This document shows, piece by piece, positions 972 to 39,484 of a stretch of 64,000 nucleotides of DNA; position 1 is the first letter of the stretch; each line of letters starts with the position of its first letter. The position numbers and the translations under genes were made by a program. The stretch is from Polyangiales bacterium. Lineage in GTDB: Bacteria; Myxococcota_A; Polyangia; Polyangiales; JADJQN01. The notes beneath the pieces are model-generated. The model saw only the letters and a list, made by a program, of their open reading frames with translations. It had not been told where the DNA came from and searched no databases. The DNA lies in NCBI GenBank assembly GCA_964202905.1, contig CAXNJO010000003.1:576001-640000 (forward strand). Direction: 5' to 3'.

Positions 972-2915
<1,944 letters not shown>

Positions 2916-2938
2916 CGTCGTGCCCTCCCGCTTCGCGC

Positions 2939-6532
<3,594 letters not shown>

Positions 6533-13429: not shown

Positions 13430-15934
13430 CTACTCTTCCACGCTCGACCAGAAGGCGTCGGCGCGGCGGCGGCACTCGCGGCGCGCTTCGCGGAACGCGT
13501 CGTCCGCGCGAAGCGGCCCGAGCGAGGGGCAGCGGTCGAGCCACTCGACGTCCGCGAGCCCCGCCTCGACCGCGCGCCCGAGGTAGCGCACCGCGTCCGG
13601 CACGCGCCCGAGCCCCGCGAAGATCTCGGCGCCGCTCTGCAGCGCGAGCCGGAGAAAGCGCGGGCTGACGACCGCGGGGATGAGCGCGCCGAAGATCGCC
13701 TCGCCCTCCGCGGCGCCGATGTCTCCGAGCGCGAGGCGCAGGTAGAGCGCCGAGAAACGCGCGACGGGGTCGTCGCTCTCGTCGAGCGTCGGCAGCAGCG
13801 CCCGCTGCCCCTCGACGTCGCGGTACCACACGGCGATGCGGGCCTGCAGCGCGAGGAGTTGCGCACCGCCGCCCGCGTCGTGCACCGCGAGCACCCGCCG
13901 GCTGGCCTCGCGATCGCCCGCGAGCGCGAGCGTGCGTGCGAGGTCGCGCGCGGCGACGATTAACGTCGGGTCGAGCTCGAGCGCGGCCCGGAGATGGCGC
14001 ACGCCGCGCTCGAGACGCCCCGTCTCCACCGCCATGGCGCCGAAGGCCTGGTGCGCGGCCGCGAAGGTGGGCGCGATCGCGACGGCGCGAGAGAGCGAGC
14101 GCCCGGCGCCCGCGTAATCCGAGACGTGCACCGCGTAGAGGCCCGCCGCGAGCTGCGTCTCGGCGACGTCGGGCGCGTGCAGCCGGGCGCGCTCGACGCT
14201 GCGCGCGACCGCGTCCGCGAAGCCCACCGGATCGACGGAGGACGGCGCGAACCACGCGCGCAGCGAGGCGAGCGCATGTCCAGCGAGGGCCGGCGTGAAG
14301 GAGGGCGCGCGCGCGAGCGCCTCGTCGAAGAGCGCGACCGCGCCCCCCGGCCCGTCGAGCCGCGTGAGCGCGAGCGCGCGCCGCCCGCGCATGTAGGAAT
14401 CCACCGCTTCGGCCGACGCCGCGCCGCGACGCGCGCCGACGTCGAGCGACACGCGGAGCGCCTCCGCGACGCGCCGGCTCACGCGCTCCTGCACCTCGAA
14501 GACATCCTCGAGCTGCGCGTCGAAGCGATCGCTCCACAGCTGCGTGCCGGACGCGACGTCGACGAGCCGCACGCTCAGGCGGAGCGCGTCCGCGGTGCTC
14601 TGCACGGTGCCGTCCACGACCGCGTCGACGCCGAGCGCGAGCCCGACGCGCTTCGGGTCGCGATCGTCCCGGAATCGCGCGGTCGCGGCGCTCCCTGCGA
14701 GGCGCAGCCCGCGCGTACGCGAGAGCACATCCGTCAGTTCCTCGGCGAGCCCGTCCCCCAGGTACGCGAGCTCGGCGGGGCCCCGGTATCGGAACGGCAA
14801 AACCGCGAGCGCGCGCACCGGCGCGACCGGCGGCACGCCCGACTGCGCATCCGAGGGCGCGCGCGATTCGTCGCCGGGCGTCCGCGTCGAGGCCACGCCG
14901 AGGAGCCCGCTCTCATACAGCTCCGTCCGCGCCTGCGCCTCGCCCGACGCCTCTGCGACGCCGGCCTCGCCGTCCTGCGGCGTCTCTTGCGCGCCGACCG
15001 AGAGTCCGTGAGCGCGCAGCCAGACACGCAGAGCCGCCGCGACCGCGCGGCCGTCCGCGGGGCGTCCCTCGGGCTCGCGCGAGAGGCAGGCGAGCACCAG
15101 CTCTGCGAGCGCGTCGTCGATCGCGACGGCTGCGCGCGGATCGGGCGGCGGCTGCTGGAGCCGGGCGAGCGCGGTCGCGATCGGCGTGTCGCCCCGGAAG
15201 GCGTGCGTACCGACCACCATCTCGTAGAGGAGCAAGCCGAGCGCGTAGACGTCGGTGCGCGCGTCGACGGGCAGGGCCTGCACCTGCTCGGGCGCCATGT
15301 AGAGCGGGGTGCCCACCGGGCCGAGCGTCCGGTGCAGCGAGGCCTCGTCGGCGAGGCCGCGCGCGATGCCGAAATCCGTGAGCACGACGCGGCCGGTCGC
15401 GTCGAGGAGCACGTTCGCGGGCTTGAGATCGCGGTGCACGACGCCGGCCGCGTGCGCCGCGCCGAGCCCATCGGCGACGGCGATCGCGAGGCGGACGGCG
15501 CGCTCGGGGGCGAGCTGTTTGTCGCGCTCGAGCAGCGCGTCGAGGTCGCCGCCCTCGACGTATTCCATCGTCAGGAAGTGCACGCCGGCGTGCTCGCCGA
15601 GGTCGTGGACGCGCGCGACGCACGGGTGCGAGACGCGGCGCGCGAGGCGGACCTCGCGCTTGAAGCGCTCGATGGACGCGGGGGATGGTGCCCGCGGGAA
15701 GCCGAGCTCGAGGGTCTTCAGCGCGACGCGGTCGCCGAGCAGCTCGTCGACGGCGAGGTAGACCGCGCCCATGCCGCCGCGCCCGAGCAGCCGCTCGACG
15801 CGGTAGCGCCCCGCGAACACCGCGCCCTCGCGCGGGCCGCCCGGCTGCGGCGCTTCGGGGCCCGCGGCCGCGGCGTGCTCGGCGGCGAGCGCGTCGCTGG
15901 TCGGCGGGAGTCGGGGGTCGGCGGATGGTCGCAA
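13430..15934 (-). CDS. Ser/Thr protein kinase with TolB-like and TPR domains
   Basis: GRGGMGAVY, VALK, HRDLKPAN, DFGIA, GTPLYMAPE; LAVLPF...GLAEEL TolB-like segment; start codon uncertain (TTG). Confidence 0.9.
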   Translation of the reverse strand: MRPSADPRLPPTSDALAAEHAAAAGPEAPQPGGPREGAVFAGRYRVERLLGRGGMGAVYLAVDELLGDRVALKTLELGFPRAPSPASIERFKREVRLARRVSHPCVARVHDLGEHAGVHFLTMEYVEGGDLDALLERDKQLAPERAVRLAIAVADGLGAAHAAGVVHRDLKPANVLLDATGRVVLTDFGIARGLADEASLHRTLGPVGTPLYMAPEQVQALPVDARTDVYALGLLLYEMVVGTHAFRGDTPIATALARLQQPPPDPRAAVAIDDALAELVLACLSREPEGRPADGRAVAAALRVWLRAHGLSVGAQETPQDGEAGVAEASGEAQARTELYESGLLGVASTRTPGDESRAPSDAQSGVPPVAPVRALAVLPFRYRGPAELAYLGDGLAEELTDVLSRTRGLRLAGSAATARFRDDRDPKRVGLALGVDAVVDGTVQSTADALRLSVRLVDVASGTQLWSDRFDAQLEDVFEVQERVSRRVAEALRVSLDVGARRGAASAEAVDSYMRGRRALALTRLDGPGGAVALFDEALARAPSFTPALAGHALASLRAWFAPSSVDPVGFADAVARSVERARLHAPDVAETQLAAGLYAVHVSDYAGAGRSLSRAVAIAPTFAAAHQAFGAMAVETGRLERGVRHLRAALELDPTLIVAARDLARTLALAGDREASRRVLAVHDAGGGAQLLALQARIAVWYRDVEGQRALLPTLDESDDPVARFSALYLRLALGDIGAAEGEAIFGALIPAVVSPRFLRLALQSGAEIFAGLGRVPDAVRYLGRAVEAGLADVEWLDRCPSLGPLRADDAFREARRECRRRADAFWSSVEE

Positions 15935-16033
15935 GGCGCACCCACCTTACGGCCTCACGCAGGCGGCGACCATCGTCGCCGCGCGCGGCGCGCGCTGGTC
16001 AGCGCCGATCGCGGGGTTTACATTGCCGCCCAC

Positions 16034-17482
16034 ATGACGACGCTCTCCTCGCGGTACAAGGCCCCCTTCGCGCCGGGCGGGTCGGCGCCCGTCGACGCGG
16101 AGCTCGCGCGCCGGTTGCTCACGCTCGCCCTCTCACGCGGCGGCGACTACGCCGACCTCTTCTACGAATACGGCGTCTCCGGCAGCTACTCCTTCGACGA
16201 AGGCATCCTCAAGGCCGCGGGCCGCGCGGTGACGATGGGCCTCGGCGTGCGCGTCATGAAGGGCGACGCGACCGGCTACGCCTACGTCGAAGAGCTCACC
16301 CCCGAGGCGATGGACCACGCGGCGCGCACCGCGGCGCAGATCGCGGACGGCGGCGGCGCCCCCGCGCCGATCGGCGTCACGCCCCGCACGGTCGCGCGCC
16401 GCTACGAGCTCCCGCACCCGACGCTCGACGTCGCCGGCACGGAGAAGCGCGAGCTGCTCGCGCGGGCCGACCGCGTCGCGCGCGCCGAGGACCCGCGCGT
16501 CGTGCGCGTCGACGCGTCGTTCAGCGAGGAAATCCGCGAGATCCTCATCGCCTCCTCGGACGGCAAGCTCGTGCACGACGTGCAACCGCTCATGCGCTTC
16601 GGCGTGCGCGTGATCGTCGAGCACGAGGGCAAGCGGCAGTCGGGCTCGTCGGGCGGTGGCGGACGCTTCGGCATGGCCTACTTCGAGGGCCGCAGCCCCG
16701 AGTGGCACGCGAAGGAGGCCGTGCGCCAGGCCGTCGCGATGCTCGACGCGCGCGAGGCCCCCGCGGGCGAGCTGCCCGTCGTGCTCGCCCCGGGCGACAG
16801 CGGCATCCTGCTCCACGAGGCGGTCGGGCACGGGCTCGAGGCCGACTTCAACCGCAAGAAGACGAGCAACTACTCCGACGCCGTCGGCACCAAGGTCGCG
16901 AGCGAGCTCTGCACGGTGGTCGACGACGCGACGCTCGCCTTCTCGCGCGGGACGATCAACGTCGACGACGAGGGCAACGAGCCGACGAAGGCGACGCTCA
17001 TCGAGGGCGGCATCCTCCGCGGCTACATGCAGGACCGGCACTCGGCGGGCTTCTTCCACACGGCGCCGACGGGCAACGGGCGCCGCGAGTCCTTCCGCTC
17101 GCACCCGCTCCCGCGCATGACGAACACGCTGCTGCTCGCGGGCAAGGACGACCCGGCCGACATCATCCGCTCGGTCGAGCGCGGCATCTACGCGTGCAAG
17201 TTCGGCGGCGGACAGGTGGAGATCTCGAACGGCGACTTCGTGTTCTCGCTGACCGAGAGCTACCTGATCGAGAACGGGCGCATCACCGCCCCGCTCAAGG
17301 ATGTGAACCTCATCGGCAACGGCCCCGACGTCATGCGCAAGGTCGTGATGCTCGGACACGACGTCGAGGTCTCCGACGGCATCTGGACCTGCGGCAAGGA
17401 CGGGCAGTCGGTGCCCGTCGGCGTCGGCTGTCCCACCATCAAGATCTCCGCCGTGACCGTCGGCGGCTCACAGATCGGCTGA
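16034..17482 (+). CDS. tldD: Metalloprotease TldD
   Basis: LLHEAVGHGLEAD, TGNGRRES, PRMTNT, GGGQV, CGKDGQSVPV. Confidence 0.92.
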   Translation: MTTLSSRYKAPFAPGGSAPVDAELARRLLTLALSRGGDYADLFYEYGVSGSYSFDEGILKAAGRAVTMGLGVRVMKGDATGYAYVEELTPEAMDHAARTAAQIADGGGAPAPIGVTPRTVARRYELPHPTLDVAGTEKRELLARADRVARAEDPRVVRVDASFSEEIREILIASSDGKLVHDVQPLMRFGVRVIVEHEGKRQSGSSGGGGRFGMAYFEGRSPEWHAKEAVRQAVAMLDAREAPAGELPVVLAPGDSGILLHEAVGHGLEADFNRKKTSNYSDAVGTKVASELCTVVDDATLAFSRGTINVDDEGNEPTKATLIEGGILRGYMQDRHSAGFFHTAPTGNGRRESFRSHPLPRMTNTLLLAGKDDPADIIRSVERGIYACKFGGGQVEISNGDFVFSLTESYLIENGRITAPLKDVNLIGNGPDVMRKVVMLGHDVEVSDGIWTCGKDGQSVPVGVGCPTIKISAVTVGGSQIG

Positions 17483-17487
17483 CGCGC

Positions 17488-18867
17488 ATGTCCATGAAAT
17501 CCAACGGAAAAGTGGATGCGCTCCTCGGCCTCGGGGACCGCATCGTGTCGATGGCGCGCGCGGCCGGCGCCGACGTCGCCGAGTGCAGCGTGCGCGAGGG
17601 CGATCACCTCAGCGTGAAGGTCCGCATGGGCGCGCCCGAGCTCGTCGAGGAGGCGGGCTCGCGCGCCGTGGGGCTCCGCGTGATGCTCGGGCAGCAGGTC
17701 GCGGTGACGTACACGAGCGACCTCACCGACGCGGGCCTGCAGCGCTTCGTCGAGGACGCGCTCGAGCTCGCGAAGCTCTCGCAGCCCGACCCGTTCGCGG
17801 GGCCGCCGGATCCGTCGCTCCTCTCGTCGCGCGCGGACCACGCGGACCTCGACCTCTTCGACCCCGAGATGCGCGCCCTCGACGCGGCCGAGGCGCTGCG
17901 GCGCGCCAAGGCCGGCGAGGCCGCGGCCTTCGCCGTCGACCCGCGCATCACGAACAGCGAGGGCGGCTCGTTCACGCGGGCAGCGGGCGCGAGCGCGCTC
18001 GTCACCTCGGGCGGTTTCCGCGGCGGCGGCGAGGGCACGTACGCCTCGATCGTCGTCTCGCCCATCGCCGAGGACGAGGGTGGCAAGAAGCGCAGCGGCC
18101 ACCACTGGGCGGCGCGCCGCAAGCTCGCCGGGCTCGAGGACGCCGGCGACGTCGGCCGCGAAGCCGCACGCCGCACCCTCGCGCGGCTCGGCGCACGCAA
18201 GGTCGAGACGCAGGAGGTCGCGGTCATCTTCGATCAGGACGCCGCGCGCGCGATGCTCGGCCTGCTCGCGGGCGCCGTGAACGGCAGCGCGGTCTGGCGG
18301 AAGTCGAGCTACCTCGCCGACCGCGAGGGCACGCGCGTCGCCTCCGAGCACGTGACGGTCATCGACGATCCGCTCCTCGTCGGCGGTCCCGGCTCGCGCC
18401 CCTTCGACGGCGAGGGCCTGCTCTCGCGCCGCAACGTCGTGGTCGAGAACGGCATCCTCCGCACCTTCCTGCTCGACACCTACAGCGCGCGGAAGCTCGG
18501 CAAGCAGAGCACCGCGAGCGCCTCGCGCGGCTCCTCGGGCGGCGTCGGCCCGGGCAGCACGAACTTCATCCTGCAGCCGGGGCCGCTCAGCGCCGACGCG
18601 CTGCTCCGCGCGACGCCGCGCGCGCTCTACGTCACCGACATGATGGGCTTCGGCTTCAACGCGGTGACGGGCGACTTCTCGCGCGGCGCGAGCGGCTTCT
18701 GGGTCGAACATGGAGAAAAGGTCTTTCCGGTGAGCGAGGTCACCATCTCGCTCAACGTCGACCAGATCTTCCAGCGCATCGACGCCGTCGCGAACGACCT
18801 CGACCTGCGGACCTCGGTCGCATCGCCGACGTTCCGCGTGAGCGCGATGACGCTCGCGGGCAAGTGA
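17488..18867 (+). CDS. pmbA: TldE/PmbA protein
   Basis: SRPFDGEG, TGDFSRGASGFWVE, PVSEVTI; no HEXXH; directly after tldD. Confidence 0.9.
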   Translation: MSMKSNGKVDALLGLGDRIVSMARAAGADVAECSVREGDHLSVKVRMGAPELVEEAGSRAVGLRVMLGQQVAVTYTSDLTDAGLQRFVEDALELAKLSQPDPFAGPPDPSLLSSRADHADLDLFDPEMRALDAAEALRRAKAGEAAAFAVDPRITNSEGGSFTRAAGASALVTSGGFRGGGEGTYASIVVSPIAEDEGGKKRSGHHWAARRKLAGLEDAGDVGREAARRTLARLGARKVETQEVAVIFDQDAARAMLGLLAGAVNGSAVWRKSSYLADREGTRVASEHVTVIDDPLLVGGPGSRPFDGEGLLSRRNVVVENGILRTFLLDTYSARKLGKQSTASASRGSSGGVGPGSTNFILQPGPLSADALLRATPRALYVTDMMGFGFNAVTGDFSRGASGFWVEHGEKVFPVSEVTISLNVDQIFQRIDAVANDLDLRTSVASPTFRVSAMTLAGK

Positions 18868-20480: not shown

Positions 20481-21146
20481 GTGGGCGTGGTCGTAGGACT
20501 GACGGGTGGGATCGCGTCGGGCAAGAGCACCGTGGCGCGTCTCTTCGGCGCGCTCGGCGTGCCCATCGTGGACGCGGACGCCGTGGCGCGGGACGTCGTC
20601 GCGCCGGGCAGCGACGCGCTCCGCGAGATCGTCGCGGCCTTCGGCGAGGGCGTGCTCGCGGGCGGCGCGCTCGACCGCGCGTCGCTCGGCGCGCGCGTGT
20701 TCGCGGACACGGCGTCGCGCCGCCGACTCGAGGCGATCACGCACCCGCGCATCGCCGCCGAGAGCGCACGGCGGCTCGCGGCCGCACTCGCGGGCGGCGC
20801 GCCCTATGCGCTCTACGAGGCCGCCCTGCTCGTCGAGAACGGCGCGTACCGCATGTTCCCCGCGCTCGTCGTCGTCACCGCGCCCGAGGACGTGCAGCGC
20901 GCGCGCATCGCCGCGCGGGACGAGCTCGACGCGGCGCAGGCCCAGGCGCGCATCGCGGCGCAGGCGCCCGTCGACGCGAAGGTCGCCGTCGCCGACTGGG
21001 TCATCGAGAACGCCGGCGACCTCGCCGCGCTCGAGGCGCGCGTGCGCGCGGTGCACGGCGCGATCCTCGCGCGCTTCGCGGCGGAGGCCGTGCCCGGAGC
21101 GGCGCAGGGCGGGGTCGGGGCGGACACGCACGGAGGCGCACGATGA
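20481..21146 (+). CDS. coaE: Dephospho-CoA kinase
   Basis: VGLTGGIASGKST, DAD, LDRASL, LEAITHP. Confidence 0.95.
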   Translation: MGVVVGLTGGIASGKSTVARLFGALGVPIVDADAVARDVVAPGSDALREIVAAFGEGVLAGGALDRASLGARVFADTASRRRLEAITHPRIAAESARRLAAALAGGAPYALYEAALLVENGAYRMFPALVVVTAPEDVQRARIAARDELDAAQAQARIAAQAPVDAKVAVADWVIENAGDLAALEARVRAVHGAILARFAAEAVPGAAQGGVGADTHGGAR

Positions 21147-22273
21147 GCCGCGGACGCACGCTGGTGACGGGCTTCCCCTCGAGTTTCCTCGCGCGGCGCG
21201 TGGTGCAGAAGCTCCTCGCCGCCGAGCCCACGACGCGGCTCACCTGCGTGGTGCAGGCGAAGTTCCGCGCCCGCGCGGAGGAGGCGCTCCGCGGGCTCGG
21301 CGACGCCGAGCGGCGCCGCGTCGAGCTCGTCGAGGGCGACATCGCCGCGATGGACCTCGGGCTCTCCGGGCGCGAGTTCCGCGAGCTCGCGCGCGAGGTC
21401 GAGGTCATCCACCACTGCGCGGCGGTCACGTACCTAGGCGCCGATCGCCGCGCCGCCGAGCGCGTGAACGTCGGCGGCACGCGCGAGGTGGTCGAGTTGG
21501 CCGAGGCCGCGACGAACCTCTCGCGCCTCGTGCACTGGTCGACCGCGCTCGTGTCCGGCGCACGCCGCGGCTACGTGCTCGAGGGCGAGCTGCTCGCGCC
21601 GTCGGGGTTCCGCAACGCGGTCGAGGAGACGCGCTTCCGCGCCGAGCGCATCGTGCTCGAGGCGGGCGCGCGGGTGCCGACGACGGTGCTGCGCCCTGCG
21701 ACGATCGTGGGCGACTCGCACACCGGCGAGATCGACCGCTTCGAGGGCCCGTACCTGCTCGTGCAGCTGCTCCTCAGCGCGCCGAGCGATCTGCGCCTGC
21801 CGCTCCCCGGCCGCGGCGACATCCCGCTGAACCTCGTGCCCATCGACTACGCCGTCGACGCAGGCTGCGCGATCGCCCGCGACCCGCGCTCGGTCGGGCG
21901 CACCTTTCACCTCGTCGATCCACACCCGCTCACGACGCGCGCGGTGTTCGAGCGGCTCGCGCACGAGGCGGGGCGCCCCTCGCCGCGCGGCTCCGTCCCG
22001 ACGCGCGTCGCGGCCGCGCTCCTGCGCGCGCCCGGCCTCGATCGGCTCGCGCAGGCGCCGCGCGCCTTCCTCGAGCAGCTCGGCACCGAGGTCGTGTACG
22101 ACGCGCGCAACACCGAGGAGTTGCTCGCGCACACCGGCATCGCGTGCCCGCCCTTCGATCGCTATGTGGGCACGCTCGTCGACGCCGTGCGCCGCCAGCA
22201 GGCCGCGCGGCGCGCGCAGGTCGCGACCGAGCTCGAGGCCGTGCCCGAGCACGACGACCCGCTCGCGGATTGA
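21143..22273 (+). CDS. Extended SDR / NAD-binding reductase-like protein
   Basis: LVTGFPSSFL, HCAA, VNVGGT, LRPATIVGDS, NLVPIDY; ATGA overlap with coaE. Confidence 0.8.
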   Translation: MSRGRTLVTGFPSSFLARRVVQKLLAAEPTTRLTCVVQAKFRARAEEALRGLGDAERRRVELVEGDIAAMDLGLSGREFRELAREVEVIHHCAAVTYLGADRRAAERVNVGGTREVVELAEAATNLSRLVHWSTALVSGARRGYVLEGELLAPSGFRNAVEETRFRAERIVLEAGARVPTTVLRPATIVGDSHTGEIDRFEGPYLLVQLLLSAPSDLRLPLPGRGDIPLNLVPIDYAVDAGCAIARDPRSVGRTFHLVDPHPLTTRAVFERLAHEAGRPSPRGSVPTRVAAALLRAPGLDRLAQAPRAFLEQLGTEVVYDARNTEELLAHTGIACPPFDRYVGTLVDAVRRQQAARRAQVATELEAVPEHDDPLAD

Positions 22274-22480
22274 GCCTCACGCACGCTCGACGAGCCTCTT
22301 CGCGCCGGCGCGAAGCGACGTGGTTTCAACCACTTGTGGCCGAATGCCACGCTCGTGCGCGGGAGTCCGAATCCGGCATCGTCGCGATGTTTGGGAGTTT
22401 GTTCGACGTCGCAGAACTTCGCGTGACCCCACGCGTCGGAGGCTCCACGGCGCGCAGAGACGCGCGCGAAGGAGCCCGCG

Positions 22481-23719
22481 GTGGACGTCACGCTCGTACT
22501 CACGCACGACTGCAACCTCGGCTGCGCCTACTGCTACGCGGGCGCGAAGTTCCAGAAGCGCATGAGCCCGGAGACGGCGTCGCGCGCGATCGCGCTCGCC
22601 TTCACCGACGGCGCGCCCCGCGTGCAAATCTCGTTCTTCGGCGGGGAGCCGCTGCTCGCGTGGGACGAGCTCGTGCGCTCGGCCGAAGAGGCGCGCGCGC
22701 TGGCCGAAGCGCGCGGCGTCGCGCTCGTGATGTCGGTGACGACGAACGGCACGCTGCTCGACGCCGACCGCGCCGCGACCCTCGACGCGCTCGGCGTCTA
22801 CGTCGCGCTCTCGATCGACGGCGTCCGCGAGGCGCACGACGCGGGGCGCCCGCGCGCAGGCGGCGGCTCGAGCTTCGATCAGGTCGCGCGCGGCCTCGAG
22901 GTGCTGCTGCGGCGCGGGACGCCCTTCGAGACGATCTCCGTCGTCACGCCGCAGAACGCACACCTCGTCGGCGCATCCGTCGAATGGCTCTTCGCGCAGG
23001 GCGTGCCGCGCGTGGGGCTCAACCCCTGCTACGAGGCGGCCTTCGACGACGCAGCGCTCGCGGCGTGGGAGCGCGGGCTCGAGCACGCGGCCGAGGTCGT
23101 CGCGGGTCATTTCCGCAGCGGGCGCGTCGTCTCGCTGACGACCTTCGACAACAAGATCCTCGCGGCCGTGAAGGGCGGGCTCTCGGCGGGCGATCGCTGC
23201 TCGCTCGGCACGCGCAGCGTGGCCGTCGCGCCGGGCGGGAACCTCTACGCCTGCGAGCGGCTCGTCGGCGAGGACGACGACGCCTCGCTCGTGATCGGCC
23301 ACGTCGACGACTGGGCGGGCCCCGCGGGCGAGGCGTGCGCGCGCGGCCCGGTGAACCCGGCGTGCGAGCCCTGCGGCGAGCGCTGGCGTTGCAGCAGCCA
23401 CTGCGCCTGCGCGAACCGCGCGGAGACGGGGCGCACCGACGTCGCGGGCGGCACGCAGTGCTGGCACGAGCGCACGACGGCGCGCATCGCCGATGGCCTC
23501 GCCGAGACGCTCTGGGCCGAGCAGAACCCGGCGTTTCTCGCGTGGTTCTACGGGCGCTCGCTGCCCGCCGGGACGACCGCCAACGGCGCCCACGAAGCGC
23601 ACGCGTCGGCACACGCGAGCACCCCCATGCGCACGCCGCACGAGCCGCGACGAAGCGTCGGACGCATCGATCGGCGGGCGCCCGTGACCGCACGAAAGCG
23701 CCTCGTGGTGGTGCGCTGA
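22481..23719 (+). CDS. Radical SAM/SPASM domain protein
   Basis: CNLGCAYC, FFGGEPLL, TTNGTLL, SIDG; SPASM CSLG...YAC...CEPCGERWRCSSHCAC...C; AAGGAG RBS. Confidence 0.92.
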   Translation: MDVTLVLTHDCNLGCAYCYAGAKFQKRMSPETASRAIALAFTDGAPRVQISFFGGEPLLAWDELVRSAEEARALAEARGVALVMSVTTNGTLLDADRAATLDALGVYVALSIDGVREAHDAGRPRAGGGSSFDQVARGLEVLLRRGTPFETISVVTPQNAHLVGASVEWLFAQGVPRVGLNPCYEAAFDDAALAAWERGLEHAAEVVAGHFRSGRVVSLTTFDNKILAAVKGGLSAGDRCSLGTRSVAVAPGGNLYACERLVGEDDDASLVIGHVDDWAGPAGEACARGPVNPACEPCGERWRCSSHCACANRAETGRTDVAGGTQCWHERTTARIADGLAETLWAEQNPAFLAWFYGRSLPAGTTANGAHEAHASAHASTPMRTPHEPRRSVGRIDRRAPVTARKRLVVVR

Positions 23720-23784
23720 GCCGCCTCGCCCGACTTCCATCTTTTCCAGAATCACGTCCTCCATCGCTCGATCACGGAGCCGCC

Positions 23785-24504
23785 ATGACCGCGCCACGCC
23801 CTGTCCGCCGCAAGCCCGTCGCCGCACCGCTGGCCTCCTCGCGCACGCTCGCGCGCCCGCTCGCACCGCACGCCGTCACGGACGCGCCGCGCGGCTATCC
23901 GACGGCCGCCGCGCTCTTCGCCTCGGGCGGGCTCACGACGCAGCTCGGCGCCTCGCTGCGCGCGCTGCTCGGCCCCGCGGCGCTGATGGGCGCCGTGGGC
24001 GTCGCCGGCTGCGGGCCGCTCGACGCGCCGCCGAAGGCGGATCCCGCCGCAGACGTCTCGCCGGGCGACGCGAAGACGCCGCCCGACAAACCGGACGATG
24101 CCGCATCACCGCCGGACGACGCGCCGGTCTCGGGGACGCCCTCCATCGTGCTCACGCCGCTGCCGCCTCAGCCGCCTCCGATCCGGCCGCCCGTGCCGCA
24201 GGACGTCGACACCGGCCGCCCGCCACCCCGTCCGTGGACGCCGCCGGTCGTCTCCGGTCCGCTGCCGCCTCTGGTGCGCCCCCCGATCGCGCGCGGCGTC
24301 ATGCAGCACGTCGAGCCCGAGCCCCCGAGGCCGGAGCCCATGCCCCCGCGGCCCGAGCCGATCCTCCCGCGTCGGGACCCGATCCCGCTCGCGGGCGCGC
24401 CGATGCCCGTGCATCCGCCCCCGCTGCCGCCGCCTCCGATCCATCCTGCCCCCCACGCCCCGCAGGCGCCGGGGCGCATCATGGTGCGCCCGGACGTCGA
24501 ATGA
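23785..24504 (+). CDS. Pro-rich putative lipoprotein next to the radical SAM gene
   Basis: GGAG RBS; basic N-terminus, PRGYPT, hydrophobic stretch ending VGVAGC, Pro-rich tail with repeated Gly-centred motifs. Confidence 0.7.
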   Translation: MTAPRPVRRKPVAAPLASSRTLARPLAPHAVTDAPRGYPTAAALFASGGLTTQLGASLRALLGPAALMGAVGVAGCGPLDAPPKADPAADVSPGDAKTPPDKPDDAASPPDDAPVSGTPSIVLTPLPPQPPPIRPPVPQDVDTGRPPPRPWTPPVVSGPLPPLVRPPIARGVMQHVEPEPPRPEPMPPRPEPILPRRDPIPLAGAPMPVHPPPLPPPPIHPAPHAPQAPGRIMVRPDVE

Positions 24505-24608
24505 CCGCGTCGTGCGGCGCCTGCCTCTGACCGCGCCGATCGCCGTGCGAAACAGGCCGATCACGCCGTGCGACGCGGCGCGGAGCGCGTGCTAGCGTCG
24601 CCCCGGCC

Positions 24609-25775
<1,167 letters not shown>

Positions 25776-33404: not shown

Positions 33405-35165
33405 TCAGCGCAAGATGACGGCGACCGTCGGCGCGAGCAGATCCATCGCGACGCCGCCGTCGGGCGTCAGGTCGACACTTGTACCCGTGCGCCCGTCGGT
33501 CACGCGGCCCCAGCAGTACCACGCCCTCGCCGGATCGGCGGCCGTGCTCGAGCGCCCGCACGAGTGATCGGCCGCCACCGCGACGGCGTCGAAGTCGGCG
33601 AGGATCCGCGTCGGCACGTAGGTGAAGTCCGCCGTCCCGGTGCCCGTCTGCCCGCGCGCGCTGACGCCCCAGCAGTAGAGGTCGCCGTCCACCGCGACGG
33701 CGTCGAAGCCGATGGCGCAGGTGTGGAAGTTGCCCGCGGCGATCTGCGTCCAGACCGCGACCGGCGTAGTCACCCGCTGGGGCGTGAGCACGTCCATGCC
33801 CGGGCCCGGGTCGGAGATCCCGAGCCCGAGGCGGCCCCAGTTCGTCTGCTCACCCCAGCACCAGAGCGAACCATCTTGCTGGATGGCACAGGTGTGGGCC
33901 GTGCCCGACGAGACCTCACGCCAGTCGAAGCCGACGCCGACCCGCGTCGGCTCGCTGCGGTCGAGCGTGTCCCCGACGCCGAGCTGACCACTCGTCATGC
34001 CCGCGCTGGCGTTCGAGCCCCAGCACCAGAGGGAGCCGTCCTCCTGCACGCCGCAGGTGTGACGCTCGCCCGCCGAGACGCGGCTCCAGCGCGCCGTGCC
34101 GACGGGCGTCGGCGCGCTGGCGAACCCCGCTGTCGCCATTTCGCCGAGGCGACCATCGCTGCGCTGCCCCCAACAGAACAGCTGCCCGTCCGCGCGGATG
34201 GCGCAGACGTGCTCGTTGCCGCCGTCGATGGCGCGCCACGCACTGGTCCCCACGCGTGTCGGCATCGGCTGCGCGGTCGTCAGCGCGGACGAGCCTGCGC
34301 CGAGGAGGCCGAACGAGTTGGTGCCCCACGCGTAGAGCGCGCCGTCGACGGTGAGCCCGTAGGCCGTGAATTGCGTCGCGGCGACGGCGACGAAGCGCAG
34401 CGACCCGCTGTAGGACTCGAAGGGGTCGCCCGTCACGCTCGGCGAGCGCGGCGCGCCGCGCTGCGAGAAGCTGTCGTCGCCCGCCGAAGCGAGGCGATCG
34501 GCCTCCGGGGTCCACAGAATGAAGGAGTTGCGCGCCGACAGCGCGACGGGCACGCGCACGACGGCGGTCGGCGGGCCGGCGTCCGGCAGCGGACCGAGGT
34601 CGATGGGCGGTCCGAGGTCGATGGGCGGCCCGAGATCCGCGGGTGGCCCGAGATCCACGGGCGGGCCGAGGTCCGCGGGCGGCATCGCGTCGGGTCCGAG
34701 ATCGCGGGGCCCTGCGTCCATGCCCGCGTCCGGCACATCCCCCGCGCACACCCCTGCCGTGCACTCGGAGGCCGCGCAGGCCGACGCGCCGCGACCCGAC
34801 GACGTCGGCAGCACGACGGCGATCGCGCCGTCCACGGGCAGGACCCGCTCGACGCAGGCCTGCGTGAGCACCGCGCAATTCGCGTCGCGGGCCTCCGCGA
34901 AAAAGCCCCAGGTGCCCGCCGGGAGCGCGCCGGGCGACATCCCCATCGCCGCGCCGCTCGCGACGTCGGCGGCAAAGCGCGCGCTGCCCGCGCACCCGCC
35001 CGTGCGGACCTCGGCGTGCACGAGCACCGTCCCGATGGGCGCGGAGCCGCCCGCGAAGGTGATGCGCCAGTCGGCCGGCGACGGCTCCGAGCCGCACGCG
35101 CCGAGCGCAAGCAGCAGCGAGGCCGCGACGAAGCCGGTCGCGGGTCGGGAGGCGCGCGGGGTCAC
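33405..35165 (-). CDS. RCC1-repeat lipoprotein
   Basis: LALGAC lipobox; DLG linker; repeated HTC...DGSLWCWG. Confidence 0.85.
   Translation of the reverse strand: MTPRASRPATGFVAASLLLALGACGSEPSPADWRITFAGGSAPIGTVLVHAEVRTGGCAGSARFAADVASGAAMGMSPGALPAGTWGFFAEARDANCAVLTQACVERVLPVDGAIAVVLPTSSGRGASACAASECTAGVCAGDVPDAGMDAGPRDLGPDAMPPADLGPPVDLGPPADLGPPIDLGPPIDLGPLPDAGPPTAVVRVPVALSARNSFILWTPEADRLASAGDDSFSQRGAPRSPSVTGDPFESYSGSLRFVAVAATQFTAYGLTVDGALYAWGTNSFGLLGAGSSALTTAQPMPTRVGTSAWRAIDGGNEHVCAIRADGQLFCWGQRSDGRLGEMATAGFASAPTPVGTARWSRVSAGERHTCGVQEDGSLWCWGSNASAGMTSGQLGVGDTLDRSEPTRVGVGFDWREVSSGTAHTCAIQQDGSLWCWGEQTNWGRLGLGISDPGPGMDVLTPQRVTTPVAVWTQIAAGNFHTCAIGFDAVAVDGDLYCWGVSARGQTGTGTADFTYVPTRILADFDAVAVAADHSCGRSSTAADPARAWYCWGRVTDGRTGTSVDLTPDGGVAMDLLAPTVAVILR
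34591..34682. repeat. 18-bp coding tandem repeat (PPxDLG)x5
   Basis: PPADLGPPVDLGPPADLGPPIDLGPPIDLGP in the RCC1 lipoprotein linker. Confidence 0.8.
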
Positions 35166-37762: not shown

Positions 37763-39484
37763 ATGCTGCAACGCCCCGCGTCCTCGCTCGTGCTCTCCGC
37801 GCTGCTCCTCGGCCTCGCCGGCTGTGGCGACGCCCCGTCCACGCCTTCGACCCCCGACGCAGGCGCGGACTTCGGCCCGCCCGACCTCGGCGTCGACGCG
37901 GGGCCGCCGCCGCCGCCGGACGTCTGCGATGCGCTCGGGCTCACGCGCACGCCCTTCCGCACGGCCGGCGCAGGCGTCGGCATGGGCGACGTCGCGGGCG
38001 ACTTCACGGCAGAGACGCTCGCAGGGACGTACACGCTCTCCGAGCGCTGGAGCGGCTGCGAGAGCCACGTGTTCTTCGTGCACATGCCGCGCGTCTCGGA
38101 CGACGTGATCCGCACGCCGGTCGACCGCCTGCTCAGCGAGGGGCGCCGCAACGTGCAGTACTTCTTCCTCTCGACCTCGCCGGACGCGGCCGCGCGTCGC
38201 GCGCTCATGGAGGAGCTGTCCGCCGGCCTCGACGAGACGTTCGCCTTCCAGGGCACGACGGTCGAGGAGCAGGCCTTCTGGCGCGAGCGCTTCCACTACG
38301 TCACCGACGAGGCGGGCGCCGTCTCGGGCAGCGTCGGCGCGTACGTGACCGACTACCTCACCTTCGCGCGGACCCCGGCCGGCACCGTCGACCTCGGCGA
38401 TCGCGGCCGCGCCGGCATGCCGCCGCCCACGGTGTTCGGCATCGACCGCGCGCAGACGTGGGATCCGGGCGACAGCCTCAGCCCCGCCGTCGGCGCGCCC
38501 GCGGATCTGCTCGGGATGGCCGCATTTCTCAGCCACTTCTACGAGTACCGCGGCGCCCTCGACGCGCGCCTCGCCGCCGAGACGGACACCACCGTCGTCA
38601 CGCTCCTCGACGAGACGACCACCGGCCGCGTCTTCACGCGCGAGGTGACGCTCCCCGACGCGGCGGCGATGGCCGCCTTCGACACGCTCGAGATCGACAT
38701 CGAGATCACGTGCAACCAGCGCAACCCCTTCGGCTGCTCCGAGTGGGATCGCATCGCCGACATCCAGCTCTGCGCGGACGGCGCGGCCTGCACGGATCGC
38801 CGCGAGATCGCGCGCTGGATCACGCCCTACTGGCGCCGCGGCCGGCAGCACTACCTCATCGAGGCCTCGCCCTTCCTCGGCGCGCTGCGCGACGGCGGCA
38901 CGAAGCACTTCTTCGTCGAGCTCGGACCCGAGTGGGAGCGCGCGACCGAGTGGGACGCGAAGGTCGCGCTCCGCATGCGCGCCCGCGGCACCGAGCCCCG
39001 CGCGACGGGCGCAGAGCGGGCCTTCACCGGCGGCGGCTTCGGCCCGACCTACAACGACCGCGCGCCCGTCACCTTCACGCCGCCCGCGGACGCGACGCGC
39101 GTCGAGCTCGTCACGATCGTCACCGGACACGGCCAGGCGGCGAGCAACGGCTGCGCGGAGTGGTGCGATCACCGCCACGCCTTCACGGTCAACGGCACCG
39201 CGCTCCCCATCCTCCGCCACGAGGGCGAGTCGATCGGCAGCGACCGCGGCTGCGCGGCCCGCGCCGACGAGGGCGTGATCCCCGGCCAGTGGGGCAACTG
39301 GGCGCAGGCCCGCGCCTATTGGTGCCCGGGCATGGCGGTGCAGCCCATCCGCACGGACATCACCGCGCTCGTGACGCCGGGCAGCGCCAACACGATCGAC
39401 TACGAGGGCGCCTTCCGCGCCGGCGCGCCCTCCGGCGGCGACATCGCACTGAGCGCGTGGGTCGTCTGGTACCGCAACCCCTGA
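37763..39484 (+). CDS. Peptide-N-glycosidase F-related lipoprotein
   Basis: LAGC lipobox; CSEWDR, EIARWITPY, VTGHG, CAEWC, GNW..RAYWCPG. Confidence 0.8.
   Translation: MLQRPASSLVLSALLLGLAGCGDAPSTPSTPDAGADFGPPDLGVDAGPPPPPDVCDALGLTRTPFRTAGAGVGMGDVAGDFTAETLAGTYTLSERWSGCESHVFFVHMPRVSDDVIRTPVDRLLSEGRRNVQYFFLSTSPDAAARRALMEELSAGLDETFAFQGTTVEEQAFWRERFHYVTDEAGAVSGSVGAYVTDYLTFARTPAGTVDLGDRGRAGMPPPTVFGIDRAQTWDPGDSLSPAVGAPADLLGMAAFLSHFYEYRGALDARLAAETDTTVVTLLDETTTGRVFTREVTLPDAAAMAAFDTLEIDIEITCNQRNPFGCSEWDRIADIQLCADGAACTDRREIARWITPYWRRGRQHYLIEASPFLGALRDGGTKHFFVELGPEWERATEWDAKVALRMRARGTEPRATGAERAFTGGGFGPTYNDRAPVTFTPPADATRVELVTIVTGHGQAASNGCAEWCDHRHAFTVNGTALPILRHEGESIGSDRGCAARADEGVIPGQWGNWAQARAYWCPGMAVQPIRTDITALVTPGSANTIDYEGAFRAGAPSGGDIALSAWVVWYRNP

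Follow-up and report, generated by a model that had tools for sequence, protein, structure and literature searches.

The stretch of DNA considered here, called the window, comprises 64,000 nucleotides from a Polyangiales bacterium (GenBank assembly GCA_964202905.1, contig CAXNJO010000003.1, positions 576,001 to 640,000 of the forward strand). It carries a two-gene unit made up of a radical S-adenosylmethionine (SAM)/SPASM enzyme gene and a gene for a predicted proline-rich lipoprotein, hereafter the partner. The two genes very probably work together, and the enzyme may be a protein maturase that acts, before export, on hydrophobic-x-Gly-x-hydrophobic motifs of the partner, a reading that the sequences leave evenly poised between belief and doubt. 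Its parts differ in strength: the Pro-rich tail of the partner is rather probably the substrate; if so, the Gly motif would with good probability be the site of modification; and if both hold, a chemistry of the -2 Da type would have an even chance. The evidence for maturation as a whole is comparative only. With confidence somewhat short of even, the pair may represent an undescribed family of radical SAM/SPASM protein maturases of the Myxococcota, with remote Eremiobacterota-type cousins, which would carry out a new radical modification at aliphatic or Met residues of Pro-flanked motifs, use an extended Tyr-Pro Sec/Tat/lipoprotein signal as a leader, be helix-fused to its own substrate in one clade and give rise to new modified Pro-rich surface lipoproteins, possibly with an HxsA-like role in barrier or defence.

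The Two Genes

An earlier note on this DNA, made from the letters and a list of open reading frames (ORFs), had described a two-gene unit between a short-chain dehydrogenase/reductase (SDR) gene and an ArsA gene, with a CxxxCxxC motif and a Cys-rich SPASM tail in the enzyme, and all of these are found where it placed them. The ORF list gives the enzyme at 22481-23719 and the partner at 23785-24504, both on the + strand. The region has a G + C content of about 75%, and because of this long spurious frames are abundant in it; the G + C content at third codon positions (GC3) picks out two + strand genes between the SDR-like gene and the ArsA-fold ATPase gene. The features of the unit are as follows; pLDDT is the predicted local distance difference test score of the AlphaFold2 (AF2) model.

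22481..23719, + strand: radical SAM/SPASM enzyme gene, 412 aa, GTG start, GGAG at 22471-22474 (6 nt upstream)
22511..22534, + strand: CxxxCxxC radical SAM cluster motif, Cys11/Cys15/Cys18, invariant in 26 of 26 aligned homologues
23198..23461, + strand: SPASM-type Cys-rich region, Cys240, 258, 295, 298, 304, 308, 310 and 327, which aligns to the SPASM region of CteB
23558..23716, + strand: low-complexity tail at the enzyme's C-terminus, from the alignment of C-termini and pLDDT < 50
23785..24504, + strand: partner gene, 239-aa putative pre-lipoprotein with extended N-terminus, GGAG at 23776-23779 (5 nt upstream)
23785..23958, + strand: basic N-terminal extension, residues 1-58, with invariant K10, R24, Y38-P39 and L44 in an alignment of 10 partners
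23896-23901, + strand: invariant Tyr38-Pro39 of the putative leader, present in 10 of 10 close partners
23959..24012, + strand: hydrophobic segment and lipobox VAGC (residues 73-76, Cys76), from the sequence
24013..24501, + strand: exported Pro-rich region, residues 77-239 (163 residues), 36% Pro, from the sequence
24247..24264, + strand: motif VVSGPL (G158), the sole strict hydrophobic-x-G-x-hydrophobic instance in the window partner
24286..24303, + strand: motif IARGVM (G171), a variant form; at least 90% of 10 partners retain G171
24385..24405, + strand: motif PLAGAPM (G204), a variant form in which Pro stands at +2; G204 is kept by 10 of 10 partners
24466..24486, + strand: C-terminal motif APGRIMV (G230), conserved in the five closest partners

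The sole workable start of the partner is ATG 23785, since no in-frame GTG or TTG occurs before ATG 23986, which itself lies 8 residues from the Cys, and GC3 is already 0.92 in codons 1-60. The earlier note had counted about 55 extra N-terminal residues before a lipoprotein signal; the extension is of 58 residues, and the strings quoted for the partner (PRPVRRKPV, PRGYPT and LLGPAALMGAVGVAGC) are all present together with the four Gly motifs (G158, G171, G204 and G230). Residues 1-58 are predicted to be a docking or recognition leader. As read from the sequence, the putative lipobox VAGC follows a hydrophobic stretch and its Cys, the single Cys of the partner, stands 76 residues from the N-terminus, far beyond the usual signals. 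Scans with Pfam and NCBIfam gave no family for the partner, and a search of the ESM Atlas with it gave no usable match. Only four homologues are detectable by sequence search, at 64-94% identity; the partner evolves fast. The L-[AG]-G-x-P-hydrophobic subtype seen at G204 also occurs in Polyangiaceae-type and Nannocystaceae partners. R8-R9 of the window partner lie about 50 residues before the h-region and the twin-arginine translocation (Tat) models TIGR01409 and PF10518 do not match it, so that a Tat signal in this protein was considered and dropped because of the distance of the RR from the h-region. A TonB-like nature was considered for the Pro-rich tail and likewise dropped, for there is no C-terminal domain.

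Conservation of the Pairing

Homologues of the enzyme number 310 at E <= 1e-20 among 8000 scored candidates; the labelled ones are from Myxococcota, and the annotations are solely "radical SAM protein" or "uncharacterized". The distribution is patchy: the enzyme is found in 14 of 41 relatives, including the genome of the window, and, at E <= 1e-40, in 45 of the 401 genomes sampled from the phylum. When species-representative genomes were scanned, 78 loci (designated by L numbers) were obtained, of which 71 were used; truncated matches (L042, L077, L086, L095 and L096) and interrupted frames (L054 and L060) were left out.

The interpretation in the earlier note is supported in part, and those of its refuting tests that were run turned out in its favor. 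It expected homologues of the enzyme to keep a partner ORF, and a partner does adjoin or is fused to the intact enzyme homologue at 53 of the 71 loci. At 14 loci the enzyme is a fusion protein, continued at its C-terminus by a basic patch, then a membrane helix and a Pro-rich tail. At 29 further loci, a neighboring partner (25 downstream and 4 upstream) was recognized by an automatic rule, namely a same-strand ORF within 300 bp having a hydrophobic helix and a tail with at least 14% Pro; as a control, the rule was applied to the 709,076 strand-bases beyond 300 bp and gave 15 ORFs, and so roughly two would be expected by chance. Ten more partners missed by the rule were found by eye or by tblastn (L033, L035, L039, L051, L052, L064, L070, L073, L081 and L085). 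Stop/start overlaps are frequent in the enzyme-partner pairs, with gaps of -4 or -1.

In a maximum-likelihood tree of 72 enzymes, the fusions form one clade (100/99), and the window enzyme belongs to a clade of seven, six of which have the partner downstream. The partner is upstream in some enzyme clades and downstream in others; the pairing is kept in three architectures, separate downstream, separate upstream and fused. No conserved third gene (transporter, protease or ArsA-like ATPase) was found among the related loci: an ArsA-like gene neighbors the pair at 0 of 78 loci, an SDR gene at 3 and CoaE at 2. Tandem paralogues are typical of precursor genes, and tandem partner paralogues stand beside one enzyme gene at three loci:

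L051: about 2573-2845 and 2927-3481
L052: about 2509-2847 and 2872-3480
L088: 4495-4794 and 4794-5081

Partner Forms, Export Signals and the Tail Motif

The partners take five forms. The ten aligned window-type partners keep K10, R24, Y38-P39, L44, the helix, the Cys and G204. The upstream partners of a second clade have (D/R)YP followed by RR-x-F/V-L, a helix and a lipobox, and in a third group YP stands directly before a signal-peptidase-I-type signal. The Nannocystaceae partners, which have no cytoplasmic part, are simple lipoproteins whose signal is 20 residues long, and the remote loci (32-34% identity; Vulcanimicrobiota or "bacterium", Eremiobacterota-type) have partners of 82-100 residues with YTRRRF-type signals. 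A lipobox-like Cys occurs in most partner clades; a lipobox or another export signal is general among the partners, as had been supposed. The Tat model TIGR01409 is passed by 1 of 11 partners of relatives (L081, 18.6 vs 16.7) and matches 2 more weakly, and Pfam TAT_signal is weak in 2 of 6. Apart from the L081 pass, the variant partners have solely weak Tat-signal matches in Pfam and NCBIfam. The twin-arginine-like signals of the relatives fit a substrate that would be finished in the cytoplasm.

The hydrophobic-x-G-x-hydrophobic motif occurs 61 times in 40 tails, as against 8.7 +/- 2.8 times in residue shuffles (about sevenfold), and none of 1000 shuffles reaches 61. The excess is seen in each subset, that is, the separate partners (28 vs 5.2), the fused tails (30 vs 3.3) and six Nannocystaceae and remote tails (3 vs 0.3). 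The consensus of the 61 instances is P-P-x-[VLI]-[DPAR]-G-[DEG]-[MIVL]-A-A-P-P-P with Met 15-fold enriched at +2, and the last copy of the motif in relatives is often 4-20 residues from the C-terminus. As far as the sequences compared can tell, an exported motif-bearing tail is the sole element common to all partner forms.

Some of the upstream partners are not Pro-rich and have a globular insert of about 110 residues between an N-terminal MPGMIAEDP-type motif and a C-terminal IDGDMAA-type motif; this domain has no match in Pfam or NCBIfam. These partners are:

L064: 705-1241
L073: 479-1012
L081: 2969-3487
L085: 2927-3421
L070: 363-866

In addition, the partners of L057, L058, L072 (Nannocystaceae), L035, L038 and L039 end in a conserved H-x-H-x-P-[GD]-E-P-C, a string which could be a metal site.

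The Radical SAM/SPASM Enzyme

The enzyme is a complete SPASM enzyme of the peptide- or protein-modifying branch, with a compact layout that lacks an RRE domain as in anSME, and it stands outside every curated family. GC3 is about 0.95 in frame over 22470-23640 and 0.94 over the whole ORF, and the N-terminus is MDVTLVLTHDCNLGCAYCY; homologues share the MDV...THDCNLGC start position. The PF04055 model matches at 66.5 bits (cut-off 29.5), and Pfam lists Radical_SAM and Fer4_12 on the enzyme and no SPASM model at E <= 0.01. The seven-Cys pattern of SPASM proteins can be followed in the sequence itself (C240...G253-X4-C258, C295-X2-C298-X5-C304-X3-C308 and C327), and all eight Cys of the region are present in 12 of 12 aligned separate-type homologues. 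The 14 fused enzymes (L062-L084), on the other hand, keep 4 of the 8 C-terminal Cys (equivalents of C258, C298, C308 and C310) and have two clade-specific Cys columns instead; to judge from these residues, they may bind one auxiliary cluster rather than two.

Seventy-two NCBIfam models matched the enzyme, and among the best 25 of these, to which the scores given here refer, none reaches its curated cut-off and all are far below it; an enzyme in a characterized subfamily, which the earlier note named as a refuting outcome, is not what the scores show. The top match is the PapB ranthipeptide maturase model NF047865, over model positions 5-327 of 330 (165.3 bits vs a cut-off of 340), and others are nif11 maturase (120 vs 519), SCIFF TIGR03974 (97.1 vs 425), QhpD TIGR03906 (93.8 vs 453), DynA NF041298 (88 vs 450), HxsB TIGR03978 (83.5 vs 370) and anSME TIGR03942 (82.7 vs 349.45). 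No epimerase model of the EpeE/YydG type is among the best 25 of the 72. By a profile of 15 homologues, the nearest solved proteins are CteB (5wgg, 162 bits) and anSME (4k36, 120 bits), TigE giving 51 bits. Alignment (VIA-align) of the AF2 model of the enzyme with representative chains gave a similar order: CteB is the closest (Z 35.3, root-mean-square deviation (rmsd) 2.5 over 332 residues), followed by anSME (Z 28.9, rmsd 3.4 over 345 residues), ChlB (Z 28.5) and TigE (Z 26.7), and the epimerase EpeE (8ai1) comes out much lower than the first two (Z 13.9, rmsd 4.7 over 233 residues). The fold match extends over residues 1-345 of the enzyme, the SPASM region included. The enzyme has no counterpart of the N-terminal domain of CteB, because the alignment begins at CteB residue 94-101, and no N-terminal domain at all, because the protein begins 10 residues before the first cluster Cys.

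The core of the AF2 model is confident, and residues 360-412 have pLDDT < 50 and are predicted to be disordered. In the window clade and its sister clades (391-420 aa; L019-L047) the final residues of the enzyme form a conserved basic-x-L-x-V-hydrophobic motif, which is KRLVVVR in the window; the low-complexity C-terminal tail is missing from the tail-less and fused enzyme clades. According to PMC10878394, the last seven residues of TigE occupy its substrate groove, and this likeness suggests a pseudo-substrate role for the conserved C-terminal end of the window enzyme.

Among the anti-phage defence models of PADLOC 2.0 (2023 library), the enzyme matches only the pVip models (residues 4-159, 55.8 bits), that is, a generic viperin/radical SAM core, and the partner matches none.

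Proposed Mechanism and Observations That Weigh against It

Radical SAM enzymes require cytoplasmic SAM, a reductant and Fe-S assembly. The element shared by the partners is exported in every form, and therefore it would meet a cytoplasmic Fe-S enzyme only before export. Since the enzyme has these requirements, the motifs are exported and some partners have no cytoplasmic part, the simplest reading is modification before export. On this reading, leader residues 1-58 (K10, R24, Y38-P39 and L44) would dock the pre-protein on the RRE-less enzyme and delay its export. Carrying one SAM cluster and two auxiliary clusters, the enzyme would then cleave SAM and abstract hydrogen at the Pro-flanked motifs, the site of attack being most likely the aliphatic or Met residue at +2 from the Gly. 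The most likely outcome would be a net two-electron oxidation, -2 Da per site, in the form of an intra-residue or short-range C-C link or of a dehydrogenation, after the manner of the nearest structural relatives CteB, anSME and TigE. Export of the product would be by Sec, followed by acylation at Cys76 and cleavage by signal peptidase II, to give a 164-residue modified Pro-rich envelope lipoprotein. In the fused clade, the covalent linkage would take the place of the leader.

The two-electron oxidation at or beside the +2 aliphatic or Met residue is proposed by analogy, and with low confidence, because the full two-cluster SPASM set is kept, the nearest relatives carry out -2 Da chemistry and TvgB/TigE act on Val/Ile beside Gly. 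Epimerisation, which the earlier note put first among its suggestions, appears less likely than such an oxidation, the fold match of the modeled enzyme to EpeE being much weaker.

A number of observations weigh against pre-export maturation. Eighteen of the 71 loci have no recognized partner, among them L027, the nearest relative of the window in the tree. L025, L049, L055 and L046 have little sequence on the relevant side; the true exceptions are L027, where an unrelated lipoprotein lies downstream, L044, L050, L090 and the L059/61/67/68 group. Searched with a profile of the window-type partner, which covers the window subtype only, the enzyme-bearing genomes G002, G034 and G018 gave no match elsewhere. 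The shared YP leader which the earlier note had foreseen stands in part: it is invariant in the close partners and (D/R)YP recurs in two enzyme clades besides that of the window, but it is clade-specific and missing in the fused, Nannocystaceae and Eremiobacterota-type forms.

The repeated Gly motifs foreseen in the same place also stand in part, for the excess over shuffles is large but the strict motif is absent from 10 of the 29 automatic-rule partners. Five partners without it (L024, L026, L034, L036 and L040) keep another conserved string, ...T-I-A/E-P-P, and the window partner itself has one strict and three variant motifs. Moreover, the motif pattern was written post hoc, the shuffles ignore local composition and the sequences are related, and a Gibbs sampler run on the 40 tails settled on strings of poly-Pro or Ala (about 11 bits) without recovering the Gly motif. 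The fusions also raise difficulties. If a fused enzyme is never released from its substrate, it would act just once, which is unusual for a catalyst. In the fused clade, no more than 4 of the 8 SPASM Cys are retained, and therefore the chemistry of that clade may differ. In the AF2 model of the fused homologue L080, a single motif region, residues 411-440, has pLDDT 64-69 and no secondary structure, and the rest of the tail is below 50.

Alternative Explanations

The partner might instead be a membrane tether or scaffold, in which the leader or the fusion holds the enzyme at the inner membrane, the true substrate is something else (a lipid, an exported protein or a small molecule) and the tail has a periplasmic role of its own. 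This is unlikely, although the enzyme-helix-tail fusions at 14 of the 71 loci, the conserved cytoplasmic leader, the retention of the enzyme in some genomes without a recognizable partner and the fast evolution of the tail, with four homologues by sequence, would all suit it. The Nannocystaceae partners, however, have no cytoplasmic part by which to hold an enzyme, the Eremiobacterota-type partners have a short twin-arginine-like signal only, and lipobox or signal-peptidase cleavage would separate leader from tail. What all forms share is the exported motif, and no other conserved neighbor could supply the substrate, the ArsA-like, SDR and CoaE genes being absent from or rare among the 78 loci. 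Slightly less probable still is that the enzyme modifies the partner elsewhere than at the Gly motifs, either at leader Tyr38 or by a thioether from the membrane-proximal Cys, as in CteB, PapB and QhpD. The best hidden Markov model (HMM) and structure matches of the enzyme are indeed thioether formers and Tyr38-Pro39 is invariant. In addition, the residues after Cys76 are G-P-L-D, which gives a Cys-X3-Asp spacing like that reported for PapB, most tails have one Cys, and 8 of the 14 fused tails have a Cys soon after the helix. Against this, Cys76 lies in the lipobox and would be needed for lipidation, the Cys-to-acid spacing varies among partners, and the first copy of the Eremiobacterota-type partner of L088 has no Cys at all; the YP leader is not found in three of the partner forms and would be discarded after cleavage. 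A thioether at Cys76 was considered and dropped.

It is highly improbable that the enzyme is an anSME-like protein acting in trans on sulfatases or another distant target, its adjacency to a Pro-rich gene being meaningless. The shared domain layout without an N-terminal domain, the profile and structure scores against anSME (120 bits and Z 28.9) and the seven sulfatase-family genes of the genome speak for it, but the TIGR03942 score of 82.7 bits is far from the cut-off of 349, and 12 FGE-sulfatase-domain genes in the genome could serve the sulfatases. The contig around the window is sulfatase-free, as the earlier note had held for the neighborhood: the Pfam scan of 34 window ORFs gave no sulfatase, and the seven PF00884 matches above cut-off in the genome are all on other contigs. 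Furthermore, the sulfatase motif C/S-x-P/A-x-R is missing from the partner sequence, and the conserved pairing and the fusions argue against a chance adjacency. Scarcely credible is the view that the partner ORF is no real gene but an open frame in a genome of 75% G + C, or that the true product of the region is an antisense Gly-rich ORF. The frame is open from 20506 to 24504, the partner has no family or Atlas match, and the antisense ORF has an equal GC3 of 0.90. The latter value, however, arises because the antisense strand mirrors the Pro (CCN) codons, GC3 of the partner is 0.92 from the first codon with GGAG 5 nt upstream, and the product of the + strand recurs at this position, complete with leader, helix, lipobox and motifs, in many genomes, and in 14 it is joined in frame to the enzyme; it is the only product of the partner region conserved in relatives, the antisense ORF being not.

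The antisense ORF just mentioned codes for 104 aa, lies inside the partner gene at 24168-24482 on the - strand, and is a trap for GC3-based gene calling.

Comparison with Known Systems

In the HXS system, as described in PMC13128918 (Nat Commun 2026), the radical SAM enzymes HxsB and HxsC mature HxsA, a signal-peptide-bearing repeat protein that acts in the periplasm. The likeness to the pair in the window lies in a protein rather than a short peptide as the substrate, a signal peptide, short repeated motifs and a modification within the repeat, and in HXS the maturation of HxsA precedes and conditions its appearance in the periplasm. The differences are that the window enzyme gives 83.5 bits against the HxsB cut-off of 370, that there is one enzyme here and two plus HxsD in HXS, and that the motif is hydrophobic-x-Gly-x-hydrophobic in poly-Pro and not His-Xaa-Ser (no His-x-Ser was seen by eye, and no pattern search was run). 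The partner also has no peptidoglycan-binding domain, and PADLOC gives no sign of a defence role, the enzyme having a generic viperin-core match only.

anSME reads a short motif in an unfolded, export-bound sulfatase and modifies it in the cytoplasm before export. Like it, the window enzyme is a SPASM enzyme without a recognition domain, as the scores against 4k36 reflect, but it falls below the family cut-off, and the partner is no sulfatase and has no motif of the sulfatase kind. The CteB and PapB thioether maturases (ranthipeptide, SCIFF) are the best matches in both sequence and structure and share the full SPASM Cys set. The cut-offs of PapB (340) and SCIFF (425) are missed, however, the N-terminal 100 or so residues of CteB have no counterpart, and the partner has one Cys, that of the lipobox, instead of a Cys-rich core or repeated Cys-Xn-Asp/Glu units.

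TvgB and TigE, according to PMC10878394, are SPASM enzymes whose targets are Val or Ile residues next to Gly in repeated motifs (TVGG and TIGSVS), in which they form an intra-residue C-C bond, -2 Da. The same paper treats the GYW motif, whose Tyr is a ligand of auxiliary cluster I, as defining for these cyclopropylglycine synthases and gives them an RRE domain as well. The structural and profile similarity of TigE to the window enzyme (Z 26.7 and 51 bits) goes with clear differences: the 412-aa enzyme has no GYW as judged by eye, no pattern search having been run, and lacks an RRE domain; the hydrophobic positions are commonly taken by Met and Leu; and the substrate here would be an exported protein. 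By its sequence, the enzyme is outside the TvgB/TigE family.

Two further systems may be compared. QhpD, a SPASM enzyme, cross-links the small leader-bearing protein QhpC in the cytoplasm, and QhpC then goes to the periplasm. Of that system the NCBIfam model alone was compared, with 93.8 bits against a cut-off of 453; the chemistry of QhpC needs several Cys, and a dedicated protease and exporter belong to that system, none being conserved here. In borosin-type fusions, as in 14 relatives of the window enzyme, the presumed substrate forms an extension at the enzyme's own C-terminus, but the borosin enzyme is a methyltransferase and not a radical SAM enzyme, a membrane helix lies between enzyme and tail here, and the window system is split into two genes.

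Full-text literature searches, including PMC10288494, found no description of the enzyme-partner family, their coverage of the older radical SAM literature being incomplete. The general kind, a radical SAM enzyme maturing a neighboring repeat-bearing exported protein, is already known since HXS; what differs here is the enzyme clade, the motif, the Pro-rich lipoprotein as presumed substrate, the extension of the signal peptide and the natural fusion.

Radical SAM/SPASM enzymes are the main source of new peptide chemistry and, to our knowledge, nearly all the substrates known for them are short precursor peptides of the cytoplasm, which are recognized by way of an RRE domain. If maturation before export is true, the pair would be unusual in having an exported, mostly lipidated, Pro-rich envelope protein as the substrate and an extension of the export signal itself as the recognition element; the natural fusion of enzyme, membrane helix and presumed substrate is unusual as well. 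It would also provide a defined short motif for a possibly new aliphatic/Met modification, a second case, following HXS (2026), in which envelope proteins are matured by radical SAM enzymes, and a testable link between post-translational modification and the timing of Sec/Tat export. The module consists of two genes, and therefore heterologous testing would be simple.

Neighboring Genes and Other Features

The flanking genes were assigned by Pfam/NCBIfam scans:

21143-22273: SDR/thioester-reductase-like gene, upstream flank
24609-25775: gene for a Get3/ArsA-fold, BagB-like ATPase, downstream flank

The ATPase gene is directly 3' of the partner gene, and the top match of its product is a mycobacterial BagB model (332 bits vs a cut-off of 521). 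A scan of 22100-24750 found neither a promoter nor a terminator. The same genome has a second SPASM-like radical SAM gene (G000 contig C2, 696058-697134, - strand), whose product gives 79 bits to the anSME model, below the cut-off.

TldD/PmbA-family proteases process some modified peptides, and a tandem pair of TldD/PmbA-type metallopeptidase genes lies at 13994-18867 of the window, 3.6 kb upstream of the enzyme-partner pair. The start of the first of these ORFs (1162 aa) is probably over-called, because the peptidase domains fill only residues 720-1158 and the DNA is G + C-rich. The window also codes for an RCC1-repeat protein (33405-35165, - strand) and a protein with a PNGase F C-terminal domain (37763-39484, + strand); proteins of these two kinds are unusual for bacteria and common in Myxococcota-like genomes.

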